From a virus (Duplodnaviria > Caudoviricetes): a stretch of 64,000 bases of DNA. The stretch spans positions 160,001 to 224,000 of the IMG/VR virus record IMGVR_UViG_3300037692_000137; one strand, written 5' to 3'. The notes beneath the pieces were generated by a model. That model was not told the DNA's origin and did no database searches. It saw only the letters and a list, made by a program, of their open reading frames with translations. This document shows, piece by piece, positions 19,459 through 51,586 of the stretch (position 1 is its first letter; each line of letters opens with the position of its first letter). The position numbers were made by a program, and so were the translations under genes.

Positions 19459-20142
19459 TTATAAGTAAGTACCACAACTACCACAATACTTTATGTAAGA
19501 CTTCCAACGTTTACCACAGGATGAACACTGTTTTTTAGTTTTAGTCATTATAGGTTTTTTAACTTCACGTTTAAAGTCATCATATCCTTGTAGTTTAAGT
19601 GTAATAACATATGACTGTGTCTCTAAAACACCTGTATGGGTTGTTATAAAATCTTGTTTTGTTGGGGTTCCTTTTACAGTTATACCAGACGAACTATATG
19701 TATTAGAAGCACCAGCTACATCTGACCTATAGCCTATCACGTCATAACTTGATTTAAAGCCCGACAACTCTTTAATAACATCTCTAAAAGGTATCGATGG
19801 TTTTTCAAAAGTGTACTCTACTCTAACTATACCATCATCTAGCCTGTCTCCTCTAAAATCTGATATAGCCTTGGTCTTCTGTATAAATCTAAACTTATTA
19901 TTTACCCTTAAATTGTCTAAGGCACCTTTTAATTCTACTATATCATTAGCCGGAACAACTAGCTGGTTATCATTTAGTACAGATAGACCATCAATGTCCA
20001 CAGACACTACCGCTCTACGTGAATCGTAGTTTTTTAATACAATGGTGTAGTCTGAACCAAAAGGAACAGTAACTACACCATCTACTTCTCTAAGTACTTT
20101 ACCATTGTGTTTTAATATAACTAAAAAATTGTTTTTATACAT
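19459..20142 (-). CDS. Conserved phage protein with C-terminal zinc ribbon
   Basis: VPFGSDYTIVLKN..RRAVVSVDIDG N-terminus; CSSCG...CGSCG. Confidence 0.65.
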   Translation of the reverse strand: MYKNNFLVILKHNGKVLREVDGVVTVPFGSDYTIVLKNYDSRRAVVSVDIDGLSVLNDNQLVVPANDIVELKGALDNLRVNNKFRFIQKTKAISDFRGDRLDDGIVRVEYTFEKPSIPFRDVIKELSGFKSSYDVIGYRSDVAGASNTYSSSGITVKGTPTKQDFITTHTGVLETQSYVITLKLQGYDDFKREVKKPIMTKTKKQCSSCGKRWKSYIKYCGSCGTYL

Positions 20143-20203: not shown

Positions 20204-20683
20204 TTATAAAATCTTTACTTCTGTTGCCTGAATACCCTTCTCTGTGTTCTTTAAAATAAAACTTACTGGTTGGCCTGCTTTAAGTGTTTTATAGCCATCC
20301 ATATCAATACTTGTAAAGTGGATAAAATACTCTGCATCGGGGTTACCATCAATTAGTACAAAACCATATCCCATATATATTCGAGTAAGATCGTTAAACT
20401 TACCCCGTCTATAATTTCTAGACAGCTGCATGTTTCCATACAGATTAGACTATATCACCAACCAATCTGGTTGCTACGCGCTTCCACTCACTTGAGTGTA
20501 CTTCCTTTCGGAATAGTCGTTGCAGGTTCCTCATTAATAGAGGCTTCCCTCAGGATTGTCCTCGACTTGACGTTAGGATATTCCCTGAATTCACGTAGTT
20601 TTTCAAATCACATTACTGTAAAAAGCCGCCTATGGACGGTCGTTAGAAAACCATTTTACAACACCATTAATTCTTTCTTCCAT
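20204..20683 (-). CDS. csp: Cold-shock protein, intron-split: join(20683..20636, 20371..20204), 71 aa
   Basis: Spliced product MEERINGVVKWFSNDR|GYGFVLIDGNPDAEYFIHFTSI... restores RNP1 (KWF..RGYGF) and RNP2 (YFIHF); AAGGAG RBS before 20683. The ORF-track 75-aa N-terminus is intron sequence. Confidence 0.95.
20372..20635 (-). ncRNA. Group I self-splicing intron (IA2-like, 264 nt, no ORF)
   Basis: P1 CCGUC/GGCGG with U-G at the 5' splice site; P3 CUACGUG/CGCGUAG; P4 UCAGGG/UCCUGA; P7 GACUA/UAGUC; P7.1 UUCC-GAAA-GGAA; P7.2 CACUC/GAGUG; P8 CAACC/GGUUG; P9 CUGUAUG-GAAA-CAUGCAG; terminal G. Confidence 0.95.
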
Positions 20684-20741
20684 AACTCAAACTCCTTTAG
20701 TTTTTTATTTATATTATGATGATTGTAAGTCACCACGTAGT

Positions 20742-21185
20742 TTAACTTAGAAACAATGCTTTCTCTGATTCTCTCCTATTTACTAAACCTTGAGATACTT
20801 TACCGTTAGCTTTTCGCCACTGCCAAAAATTATTAGCCACACCAGTATAGTCTCCAACATTAAGCCTTCTCAGTACGGTTGATTTAGCAAAGTTAGCTAA
20901 ACCTATGTTGTAAGCCAGGCTGGTTAAAGCGTTAAACTGATTCTGTGTAACTTTAATTTTTACCAGCTCATTTACACTTTCAGAAAAGTCTCCGGCAGTG
21001 AACGTGAGTAATTCAGTAGCGCGTTCTTTTGTTATAGGAGGGTCACTTAGGCGTACCTTTGTGCCGTCCTCATAATAAGTAGAACCAAAACCTATTGTAG
21101 GTATACCCGATGGGCATAAGTAAGGCTTAGAACTAAAACCCTCAAACCTCTTTATTAAGTCTACTCCAGCTATATCTATTTTCAT
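20742..21185 (-). CDS. Endolysin, GH24 lysozyme
   Basis: EGFSSKPYLCPSGIPTIGFG, QNQFNALTSLAYNIG and GLVNRRESE motifs. Confidence 0.92.
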   Translation of the reverse strand: MKIDIAGVDLIKRFEGFSSKPYLCPSGIPTIGFGSTYYEDGTKVRLSDPPITKERATELLTFTAGDFSESVNELVKIKVTQNQFNALTSLAYNIGLANFAKSTVLRRLNVGDYTGVANNFWQWRKANGKVSQGLVNRRESEKALFLS

Positions 21186-21231: not shown

Positions 21232-22221
21232 TTATAGCTGTGCAGCCATTAAACACCCGGCAGCGACACAGGTCATAGGTGAGGTGGCTCTTCTAATTTC
21301 GCTAATAGCCATAGGAAGTACTATACCAGACAAACGGTCTTCAAACATTTTAGTAAAGCCGTCAGCCAACGTCAGTCCGCCAGAAACAATGATTGGTACA
21401 GGCTCTCTAAAGATAGGTAGTTTCTTTTCTTGCTTTTTTAACTCATATGAAATATTTTGAAGCACGTAATTAATTACTGAAGAATAGTAAACTGATATAG
21501 CCTCAGAAATTTTATCTTTGGGGTTGTACAAATCTATACCTGCTTCTTTTTCTAACTGAACTAATGATGGTGACATATCTAAAGCAGTGCCAACTGAATG
21601 GTCAATAAAATCTCCTGATCTTGTTACAGAAAATTCTACTAAGGGGTCACCTTGATGAATTACAGCTATGTTGCACATACCAGCGCCAAAAGACAGTGTA
21701 ATACCAGTTAAAGAGTCGTCTAACAACTCACTTAAAGCTATAGCAAAGGCTTCATTTATTGGCTGCCCTATAAAACCTTTTTCACGCATGAACATGTTTA
21801 GTATCTCTGTGTGGTAAACGATATCAAAATTACCGTCTACTGGTTTTGCTGGGACACTGTATACTAAAGGCTCGTCGCCGGAGCCTTTACCAATTAAGCT
21901 ACTTAGCAACAATTTAAGCATTGGAAGGCTGCTTTTTTCTTTAGGGGATATTACCCCCTTAGACATAGGGCGGCTAGATACATCATTACGTTCCATTGCT
22001 ATATGTAGAGCATCTTCTCCTACTACAATGAAGTCATTACCTTCTTCTATAAAGTTGGAGCCTCTTTTTTCTAGTGACTTTTTGATGGCTTGTTTATTAA
22101 CGTCACTCTTTGGAACTATTCTATAAAAAGCATCACGCTCCATCTTAAATACGGGATTACCCTCTTTATCTATAGAACCACACACCAACATATTAGTACC
22201 AACATCAACACCTTTTGACAT
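21232..22221 (-). CDS. Actin-like ATPase (volactin/MreB superfamily)
   Basis: GVDVGTN phosphate-1, SFGAGMCN phosphate-2, VSGG adenosine motif; RPMSKG, YSVPA and PINEA. Confidence 0.8.
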   Translation of the reverse strand: MSKGVDVGTNMLVCGSIDKEGNPVFKMERDAFYRIVPKSDVNKQAIKKSLEKRGSNFIEEGNDFIVVGEDALHIAMERNDVSSRPMSKGVISPKEKSSLPMLKLLLSSLIGKGSGDEPLVYSVPAKPVDGNFDIVYHTEILNMFMREKGFIGQPINEAFAIALSELLDDSLTGITLSFGAGMCNIAVIHQGDPLVEFSVTRSGDFIDHSVGTALDMSPSLVQLEKEAGIDLYNPKDKISEAISVYYSSVINYVLQNISYELKKQEKKLPIFREPVPIIVSGGLTLADGFTKMFEDRLSGIVLPMAISEIRRATSPMTCVAAGCLMAAQL

Positions 22222-43588: not shown

Positions 43589-43769
43589 AAGGAGACACAC
43601 GCCATGTCATTACGTTCAATTGTATGTACGTGTCGCCGCACCCAGACAAGCCACACTTTCTTGTCGATTGGGCGACTATAAATAGGCATTAGGCCCAAAG
43701 CGCCCCTATCTATACCAGGTAGGGGGTTGCTCTCTGTGTTAGTTTATTAACTTTATATAAGGAGATTGT

Positions 43770-45084: not shown

Positions 45085-45175
45085 GGGTTTAACGTGAAGG
45101 GCAAACCCGGAGCAATCCGGGGACGCAAAGCTATGGGCCCTCATTGTGAGGGCAGCCAGGTTACCAAACAAACCG
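45085..45175 (+). promoter_or_regulatory. c-di-GMP-I (GEMM) riboswitch
   Basis: GAAGGGCAAACC-CGGAGCAATCCG-GGGACGCAAAGC..GGGCCCTC..GAGGGCAGCCAGGTTACC follows the GEMM layout; G at the position-20 equivalent. Confidence 0.92.
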
Positions 45176-49930: not shown

Positions 49931-51586
49931 ATGTTTACACTCAACGAAGATGCTGCTTTGGCTATGGAAAAAGCCGAGCAAGCACAACAAAAACGTGCGC
50001 AAGAAGAAGCCGAAGCTATTGCTGCGCAACAGAGGAGAGCAGCTGCTGAGGCACAAGCAGCCGCCGAGGAGGCCAAGTGGGGCAAGAACCGGCTGATCAT
50101 TTGTGCAGGTGAGTTAGCCATCAACGGGGTACAGCTGCTGCCGGCGAAACTGATAGGTGTTATCCAGGAAATCTGGAAAATGACCAACAAACCATTCTTG
50201 GGTAGCACATCCTTTACCAGGGATATCCTCACGGACGCTGTCTCAAACAGCAAACTTACCGGAGTCTATGACGCCACCACCAAGTCGGTTGTAATCAGCC
50301 TGCACCAACTTTGGGAAGACTGTACCAAACCTGAATGCCTCCAACGTATGGGTATGGCAGAACAGGTGTGGGCAACCCTGCTTCAAGTGGTATCTCATGA
50401 GATTGTACACGCTGTTGAGCCAGAAGAGCGCGCCTGTGAAGTACGTGCCAAGGACATCATTACCACTTTGGCACAAAAGTTCGACCTCGAATGTCCGGCC
50501 ATCGTCGACATGGGTTGGTTCGCCCCCAAACTGGATGAGTGGTATGCCAGCATCGAGAACAGTGATGAGGAACTCCACAAGCTCCAGAGGCAGATGCGTA
50601 TGGAGGGTGTTCCTTATATCTTCGCCAGCGGGAAAAGGCTGAGCAGCATGAGACAGTGGTTCAGACTGTATCACGTTGAGAGGCGTGAAGAAACCGCATG
50701 GGATGAGGCAGTTAGTTCACTCATTCTTCAAGGCGCACAGCCCACACCTCCGGCCAATCCGCACGTAACCAACGCGGCAGCAACCACAATAGCAGAGGCA
50801 GCAATGACCATGGGAACCTATGAGATGCCTAAGATGCCTGGAGTGCCTGCGGCCGAAACAACAGCTGCCGGTCTTAATGACCTGAGAGCACAGATGGCTG
50901 CGCTGGGAGTTCCGTTCGGTGATGGCTGCTCGACGGTGACTGAGGAAGGTTACGATGCTTCCGCACAGATGCCCGGTGAGCTTAACTTCGGTGAAACACC
51001 CAACTATCAGCCGGCAGCACAGCAGGGACAGCAGAAACAGTACAGTGGCCCTGCTCCCTGGGCAATGCCAAGCAGCATCCCACCTCAGCCCCTCGAAGCA
51101 CCTATTGATGAGCTGAGAACGTACACTAGGGAAGTCATGATTCGTGCGTTCATGGCCATATTCGGCTACTGTGGATGGAATGGGCAGGGTGGGTACAGTG
51201 ACCCTGACTTCGTGGCCAGAACCCCAATCAATGTAACCGACATCCCACATGTCAACAACATCCTTCTGGGACTCGACACGGTGGTAGACAAGCGTAAAGT
51301 CTACGACCAGCCGACCCAAGGTATCATTCGAGGGTTTGTTGGCAAAGCAGCCAAGATGCCGCAGTATTCGTTACATATTAACCATGGGAGTAAGGTAGTT
51401 AGGTACTCCTTGATGCCGCAAAATCCGGAGCGGCCTGGACCTCGTGGGCAGGAAGCGAAAGCCGGAGCGATGTTCGGCTGGGTTACTATGCCGGGTGAAG
51501 GAGACAAGAGTGTCTACGTAGCCAAGATATCCTGCCCCTCTGGTGTAGTAAATCGTGCAAACATGGTCTTTGAAAAACTGGTGTAG
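49931..51586 (+). CDS. 551-aa protein with HExxH zincin-like motif
   Basis: VSHEIVH...EERAC; AGGAG RBS; relatively GC-rich. Confidence 0.7.
   Translation: MFTLNEDAALAMEKAEQAQQKRAQEEAEAIAAQQRRAAAEAQAAAEEAKWGKNRLIICAGELAINGVQLLPAKLIGVIQEIWKMTNKPFLGSTSFTRDILTDAVSNSKLTGVYDATTKSVVISLHQLWEDCTKPECLQRMGMAEQVWATLLQVVSHEIVHAVEPEERACEVRAKDIITTLAQKFDLECPAIVDMGWFAPKLDEWYASIENSDEELHKLQRQMRMEGVPYIFASGKRLSSMRQWFRLYHVERREETAWDEAVSSLILQGAQPTPPANPHVTNAAATTIAEAAMTMGTYEMPKMPGVPAAETTAAGLNDLRAQMAALGVPFGDGCSTVTEEGYDASAQMPGELNFGETPNYQPAAQQGQQKQYSGPAPWAMPSSIPPQPLEAPIDELRTYTREVMIRAFMAIFGYCGWNGQGGYSDPDFVARTPINVTDIPHVNNILLGLDTVVDKRKVYDQPTQGIIRGFVGKAAKMPQYSLHINHGSKVVRYSLMPQNPERPGPRGQEAKAGAMFGWVTMPGEGDKSVYVAKISCPSGVVNRANMVFEKLV

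Follow-up and report, generated by a model that had tools for sequence, protein, structure and literature searches.

We find that the cold-shock protein gene (csp) of a groundwater jumbo phage is split by a 264-nt group I intron that has no open reading frame (ORF), belongs to subgroup IA, and separates the codons for R16 and G17. We conclude, with a probability of about 0.85, that this intron is a selfish, mobile element. Its presence is patchy among close relatives, yet it is identical across lineages that have diverged around it; it is inserted at invariant, critical codons; endonuclease genes lie in or beside related copies; and a paralog has settled in a second gene of this genome, at a site resembling the one in csp. 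Marks of this kind are expected of a mobile selfish intron. The gene lies on the minus strand of a 234-kb viral record, and all positions given below, unless marked otherwise, refer to the 64,000-nt stretch of that record that was analyzed (the window). A preliminary description of the locus, made from the sequence alone, had placed the intron correctly; the observation is confirmed as real and as far beyond chance.

The intron (intron A; positions 20372–20635, minus strand) is matched end to end by the Rfam group I model RF00028 (model positions 1–253 of 253 over 20645–20426), with a score of 86 bits against a cut-off of 50 (E = 1.7e-20). The preliminary description had proposed a complete group I intron without an ORF and had suggested a check against the Rfam models; the score, well above the cut-off, and the full-length match bear this out. 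No endonuclease ORF is present inside the intron, where the longest frames encode 28 to 29 amino acids (aa). Also as described, an in-frame TAG (20630–20632, minus strand) stands two codons into the intron, such that unspliced RNA reads CGT CCA TAG. Comparable early stops are found in a second intron of the same genome and in csp introns at another insertion site (site B), both discussed below.

Both splice sites can be assigned. Group I introns are marked at their 5′ splice site by a U.G pair in helix P1, and here U20636 pairs with G20629. The 3′ splice site follows the terminal guanosine (omega G) at position 20372 (minus strand), which alone among the candidate guanosines yields an in-frame junction in agreement with intron-free orthologs. 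The U.G pair holds in ten relatives, and all ten likewise end in G. An alternative 3′ splice site at G20426, where the Rfam model ends, is also in frame. We rejected it because it would add 18 residues to RNP1 that are absent from all homologs, and because the bases beyond it form the conserved hairpins P9.1 and P9.2, into which the 54 bases between the model end and the intron end fold.

The two exons together encode an ordinary cold-shock protein (Csp). A ribosome-binding site (AAGGAG; 20692–20697, minus strand) lies 8 nt 5′ of the csp ATG (20683–20681), which opens a frame of 16 codons, MEERINGVVKWFSNDR, ending in CGT. This is exon 1 (20636–20683, minus strand), whose final base is the U of the splice-site pair; compared with the start of P0004, an intron-free homolog, it agrees at 15 of 16 residues. 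Exon 2 (20204–20371, minus strand) opens at 20371 with GYGFVLIDGNPDAEYFIHF and runs (GYGFVLIDG...KIL) to a stop at 20204, encoding most of RNP1, RNP2 (YFIHF), and the remaining cold-shock domain. On its own, exon 2 matches positions 13–64 of the 66 in the Pfam cold-shock domain profile (CSD, PF00313; E = 4e-13), and P0004, uninterrupted and near-identical, matches positions 2–65 (E = 8e-19). The protein encoded by exon 2 is 85–98% identical to homologs P0002–P0006. Ligation of the exons, with a predicted junction of AACGACCGT-GGATATGGT, gives a 71-aa Csp with both RGYGFV (RNP1) and YFIHF (RNP2), the intron being inserted between the first two RNP1 residues (R|GYGFV).

Like bacterial CspA-family proteins (PF00313), the phage Csp is about 70 aa long and has a single cold-shock domain with canonically spaced RNP1 and RNP2 motifs. 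The phage clade differs in that GYGF replaces GFGF, in a conserved MDGYKTLKAGQ segment, and in that its genes are split by an intron at approximately 13% of surveyed loci. In a tblastn search of 50,697 cultured-phage records, we found no close homolog, only csp genes at most 49% identical; thus, no cultured model phage is available for this locus. Upstream of csp is a phage lysozyme gene (20742–21185, minus strand; Pfam Phage_lysozyme, 1e-41), and downstream is a gene for a 227-aa protein with a C-terminal zinc ribbon (19459–20142, minus strand), which is syntenic at every related locus. A 329-aa actin-like protein, encoded at 21232–22221 (minus strand), gives a full-length match to Pfam Volactin (E = 6e-64), and every related phage contig likewise has a Volactin-like gene next to lysozyme.

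Intron-free orthologs establish the junction. Ten uninterrupted proteins (P0003–P0012; 71–72 aa, 75–96% identical) read straight over it (...KWFSNDR-GYGF..., as ...KWFSNDRGYGFVLIDG... or ...VKWFSNDRGYGFVLIDG...). The contigs that encode them share the gene order of the window, in which ClpP is followed by a 330-aa protein, a Volactin-like actin homolog, lysozyme, csp, a protein of 230 or 234 aa, and a 142-aa protein. The preliminary description had deduced both the NDR|GYGF junction and a 71-aa product, and in both it agrees with these syntenic orthologs. All sequencing runs found to contain the locus were DNA runs; four that we checked contained neither a spliced nor an intron-free joint, and three tiny SOLiD metatranscriptomes of the same study lacked sequence from the locus; these searches count neither way.

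We assigned the RNA structure of the intron helix by helix. P1 (20626–20640, minus strand) pairs exon CCGU and intron base C1 with the guide GGCGG (intron positions 6–10), as indicated by complementarity, the minimum free energy (MFE) fold, and the Rfam alignment. P2 (intron positions 15–28; 20608–20621, minus strand) is a 5-bp hairpin with a GUAA tetraloop, found by Rfam and with compensatory changes in its pairs. P3 (38–43/157–162; 20474–20598, minus strand) encloses P4 (48–53/81–86), P5 (58–61/74–77), and the 5′ strand of P7; P6 (87–89/110–112) and P6a (93–96/104–107); and P7.1 (123–126/131–134) and P7.2 (138–142/147–151); covariation examined pair by pair supports this region. The pseudoknot helix P7, which is the guanosine-binding helix, pairs GACUA (118–122) with UAGUC (184–188) (20448–20518, minus strand). 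Relatives carry compensatory variants of it: GACCA/UGGUC in three introns (L023, L076, and L080) and GAUCA/UGAUC in another (L067). P8 (163–167/173–177) lies between both P7 strands on the same strand, and P9 (193–210; 20426–20443, minus strand) is a hairpin with a GAAA loop, supported by Rfam and covariation. Past the end of the Rfam model, the MFE fold forms P9.1 (213–217/225–229) and P9.2 (232–237/247–252) (20384–20423, minus strand). All relatives form a P9.1 hairpin, from differing sequences, and ten introns retain P9.2 with covariation.

Folding analyses agree with this structure. From a first alignment of intron A with its paralog, csp introns of other contigs, and introns of cultured phages, RNAalifold recovered P2, P3, P4, P5, P6, P6a, P7.1, P7.2, P8, and P9, with compensatory changes in 36 of 47 pairs. 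Among ten introns of the csp and glycosyltransferase family alone, such changes affect 44 of 56 pairs, those of P9.2 included. The MFE fold of intron A (z-score −2.98) reproduces P1, P3, P6, P7.1, P7.2, P8, P9, P9.1, and P9.2. The presence of P7.1 and P7.2, both covarying, places the intron in subgroup IA. The core had originally been called IA2-like, of which the subgroup stands, at the level of IA. A P10 helix had also been suggested. The 5-bp complementarity between CCAUA and UAUGG exists, but we do not count it as P10: its exon 2 side is set back 3 nt from the junction, it competes for bases with the P1 strand, and the paralogous intron has no equivalent.

Two other structured RNAs are encoded elsewhere in the window, both on the plus strand: a Pistol self-cleaving ribozyme at 43662–43731 (Rfam RF02679; 65.3 bits, cut-off 34.5) and a variant riboswitch aptamer, c-di-GMP-I-GGC, at 45091–45169 (Rfam RF03167; 66.3 bits, cut-off 59).

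We infer from this structure that the intron is spliced in vivo. The csp pre-mRNA would fold as a P1–P9.2 ribozyme, in which an external guanosine would attack after U20636, held in place by the U.G pair of P1. The freed exon 1 would then attack after the terminal G20372, and the ligated mRNA would encode a Csp of 71 aa with nothing unusual about it. The early TAG may serve to keep ribosomes off the folding core.

Gene callers annotate a truncated Csp at this locus, either a 75-aa frame that starts at an ATG (20431) inside the intron or a 56-aa frame (P0001 and P0002). Taken at face value, such calls might mean that the intron is a dead relic within a csp pseudogene, or that the 75-aa frame is the real gene. 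We give almost no credence to either. The core helices and the conserved core nucleotides are all intact, and exon 1 has its own ribosome-binding site in front of a sequence that matches the N-termini of homologs. Furthermore, the exons are under selection: differences between lineages are almost wholly synonymous, with just one of about eight in exon 2 changing a residue between the window and a lineage with the same intron (L002, below). The 75-aa frame, for its part, lacks the KWF strand, no ribosome-binding site precedes it, and the ribozyme segment from P9 to P9.2 encodes its first 19 residues. At intron-split loci of this kind, a called “Csp” truncated to 56 or 75 aa is therefore an annotation trap.

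The intron is polymorphic at the same site among related phages. The preliminary description had recommended searching for both intronless and intron-bearing csp alleles, and both were found: csp is intron-free in L012–L016 (for example at L012:3001-3216 and L014:3001-3219), L129, and the contig encoding P0004, and carries intron A in the window and in L002–L011, contigs recovered by more than one study of groundwater or sediment. Between the window and L002–L011, the intron is identical at 264 of 264 positions, and exon 1 is identical from the second codon onward. The surrounding DNA has diverged: downstream sequence is 86–98% identical, and the upstream lysozyme only 74% (protein).

In L002–L011, a free-standing gene for a 290-aa HNH endonuclease (L002:301-1173; PHROG HNH, 2.5e-10) lies between the lysozyme gene and csp. 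Two further phage contigs have its closest full-length homologs (42% identical) at the equivalent position, where the adjacent csp genes are uninterrupted and encode 72 aa. Within the window, no endonuclease gene lies in or adjoining intron A. The configurations found are HNH with intron-free csp, HNH with intron A, and intron A alone. Two more HNH genes occur in the window genome (G000:C1:113009-113329 and 50266-50883; L047 and L048), and these are related (56% and 41%) to the csp-adjacent HNH of the L002 lineage.

Such a pattern resembles collaborative homing, which, along with reverse splicing, is a described route of intron mobility (PMC3984707; patterns also in PMC2790892). Known examples are the psbA intron of cyanophage S-PM2 with F-CphI, T3/phiI-like phages, and mobE of T4 with the nrdB intron (PMC3984707, PMC2790892, PMC6083498). 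As in these systems, an ORF-less intron sits in a conserved gene, relatives have a free-standing HNH gene beside csp, all combinations of endonuclease and intron are found, and an HNH gene likewise immediately precedes the gene that holds the second intron of the genome. The csp system differs in that the window has the intron without an endonuclease gene, and in that the two HNH proteins (that of L002 beside intron A, and that beside the second intron) are not close relatives, being weakly alike at the HNH motif (E = 0.007).

The same configurations allow a protective role, whereby the intron interrupts a target in csp and so immunizes its carrier against a homing endonuclease, such as the HNH, of co-infecting relatives; it would then be kept for a competitive benefit rather than being neutral. 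Differing alleles do coexist in one sample, as a single groundwater run includes a contig with intron A alongside one with a site-B intron, the latter being much the more abundant. In addition, an intron endonuclease is known to mediate competition between jumbo phages (PMC11620839), and collaborative homing itself is an established model (PMC3984707). We nevertheless hold this role to be a tentative possibility. HNH-bearing genomes with an intron-free csp exist and must escape self-cleavage in some other way, and the phages are uncultured. A protective role is compatible with the selfish-intron explanation that we prefer, under which the intron may well be neutral for the phage.

Introns have entered csp repeatedly. 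We surveyed 105 loci encoding this csp family (25 viral and 80 metagenomic) and found 14 to be interrupted, every one inside the stretch that encodes RNP1. The three insertion sites span 17 nt. Site A (CGT|GGA) is used only in the window and L002–L011. Site B (TGG T|TT), in the Phe codon of KWF, is 14 nt 5′ of site A and is occupied in L017–L019, L049, L050, L023, L066, L067, L068, L076, and L080. Site C (GGT|TAT) is 3 nt 3′ of site A and is occupied in L069, L072, and L073. In silico splicing of every interrupted csp gives a Csp of 69–73 aa. The B and C introns form one cluster (66–92% identical) and are 64–73% identical to intron A. An Rfam search at E = 0.001 missed seven of these introns (L023, L066–L069, L072, and L073), the identity of which rests on our own alignment and its covariation.

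Insertion sites differ even between closely related csp genes. Coding identity is 89% between the window (site A) and L018 (site B), and 86% between L067 (B) and L069 (C). The site-B intron of L068 (L068:192-1186; 995 nt) contains an ORF for a 245-aa LAGLIDADG_2 homing endonuclease (L068:324-1058; Pfam, 2e-21), whereas the near-identical host gene of L067 has an intron of 267 nt without an ORF. The 59-kb contig of L023 also encodes, at L130:1-679, a 1041-aa protein with intein-splicing and LAGLIDADG_3 Pfam hits, in a gene that adjoins an HNH gene; this phage therefore has an intein as well as a csp intron.

The window genome carries a second group I intron of 264 nt outside the window (G000:C1:71714-71977, which is L001:1450-1713, minus strand), detected by an Rfam search of the genome (match at C1:71842-72064). 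It is 84% identical to the csp intron, with a swap of GG/CC to CC/GG in P6, and interrupts a gene for a GT4 glycosyltransferase, here too following codon 16 (MERKTKILCYMDTPTC|ATGFGTV...). Directly upstream, ending 10 nt before the start codon of the GT4 gene, is a gene for a 229-aa HNH endonuclease (L001:1771-2460, minus strand). The glycosyltransferase insertion site (A2) and csp site A have GGTTTTG in common at +7 to +13.

The intron family has colonized three positions within 17 nt of the RNP1 stretch and, in the window genome, one or more genes besides csp. Movement between these sites could have taken an RNA route, with guide-matched reverse splicing followed by reverse transcription and recombination. 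The guide core of the B and C introns is the same, GCC, and at either site its partner is an exon GGU; introns at the two sites are 66–82% identical and occur in csp genes as similar as those of L067 and L069. Related introns at neighboring sites are, moreover, classic circumstantial evidence for reverse splicing (PMC3984707). Even so, we place this route on the unlikely side. No reverse transcriptase is linked to these phages, endonuclease genes (HNH and LAGLIDADG) are at hand and can likewise explain ectopic insertion, and the GGTTTTG downstream of sites A and A2 points to recognition of DNA by a protein rather than by a guide RNA.

Most likely, the intron spreads at the DNA level, following double-strand breaks made by endonucleases that are encoded elsewhere. 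Candidates are the HNH protein whose gene separates lysozyme from csp in relatives and the LAGLIDADG protein encoded within the L068 intron. Short matches to the guide sequence could help movement between nearby sites.

The classic phage group I introns are those of T4 td, nrdB, and sunY. By sequence, the nearest relatives of the csp intron are an intron in the DNA polymerase I gene of Pseudoalteromonas phage pYD6-A, ribonucleotide reductase introns of Rhizobium phage RHph_N3_13 and Roseobacter phage CRP-7, and the tandem introns of Staphylococcus Twortvirinae phages such as CF5. The csp intron shares with these phage subgroup-IA introns the RF00028 family, a core 78–88% identical over 95–175 nt, the P7.1/P7.2 extension, a U before the 5′ splice site, a terminal G, an early in-frame stop, and insertion in codons of conserved, functionally critical residues. 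It differs in its host gene, which encodes a cold-shock protein, and in an exon 1 of just 48 nt, and the csp family differs in having three alternative insertion sites within 17 nt. In phage CF5 (L044; PP034390.1 57068-59632), four tandem group I introns (Rfam 50–97 bits) lie within approximately 1.1 kb, a region annotated only as small hypothetical proteins and an “intron encoded nuclease”.

Typical phage hosts of group I introns are polymerase, reductase, and terminase genes, and phage introns and homing endonucleases aim at conserved codons (PMC3984707). The statement in the preliminary description that no csp host gene was known holds: csp is absent from the host genes named in that review, and an incomplete literature search returned no report of a csp intron. 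The csp intron otherwise looks like known phage introns in how it works, and csp seems to be a target, previously unnoticed, of a selfish element that is itself ordinary.

The nature of the host gene raises the question of regulation. If splicing were rate limiting and dependent on temperature or on Csp, the intron could gate, or feed back on, production of an RNA chaperone. The Csp family consists of general RNA chaperones, and splicing of the td intron is promoted by two other proteins, StpA and IF1 (PMC3017892, PMC1851640, PMC11587861), although the chaperone-splicing literature that we found contains no test of CspA itself on group I splicing. A conceptual analog exists in the Ll.LtrB group II intron, which acts as a cold sensor (PMC7293003). 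There, splicing gates a host gene by temperature, as has been demonstrated experimentally for Ll.LtrB, but the intron class and mechanism differ. The invasion of csp at 14 of 105 loci and the origin of the samples in cool groundwater and sediment could also be read in favor of regulation.

We regard a regulatory intron as a reasonable idea but a quite improbable one, to which the sequence lends no support. Close orthologs function without any intron, and the intron position differs among relatives. The paralog in the glycosyltransferase gene indicates that the intron family is not tied to csp, and conservation of the RNP1 coding sequence already accounts for repeated invasion. The more specific idea that csp is favored because Csp chaperones the splicing of its own pre-mRNA, creating a self-reinforcing, temperature-dependent switch in cold groundwater hosts, is to our minds just as improbable. 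A protective role is somewhat more likely than either. The selfish-intron explanation can, on present comparisons, account for intron absence, shifting sites, the paralog, and the HNH-linked lineage without a regulatory role.

Here, we describe csp as a new kind of host gene for phage group I introns, within a hot spot richer than expected. With it, the genes known to host these elements come to include one for an RNA chaperone. Uncultured phages display all the proposed stages of the life cycle: absence of the intron, a free-standing endonuclease by itself, an endonuclease together with an intron, an intron alone, and an intron with an internal endonuclease. The finding would gain greatly in importance if the regulatory idea proved true. 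Under the self-chaperoning idea, csp would be the first case of a protein-coding gene interrupted by a ribozyme that its own product chaperones. The RNP1 hot spot is a natural experiment on mobility, and offers a compact system in which to set collaborative homing against reverse splicing.
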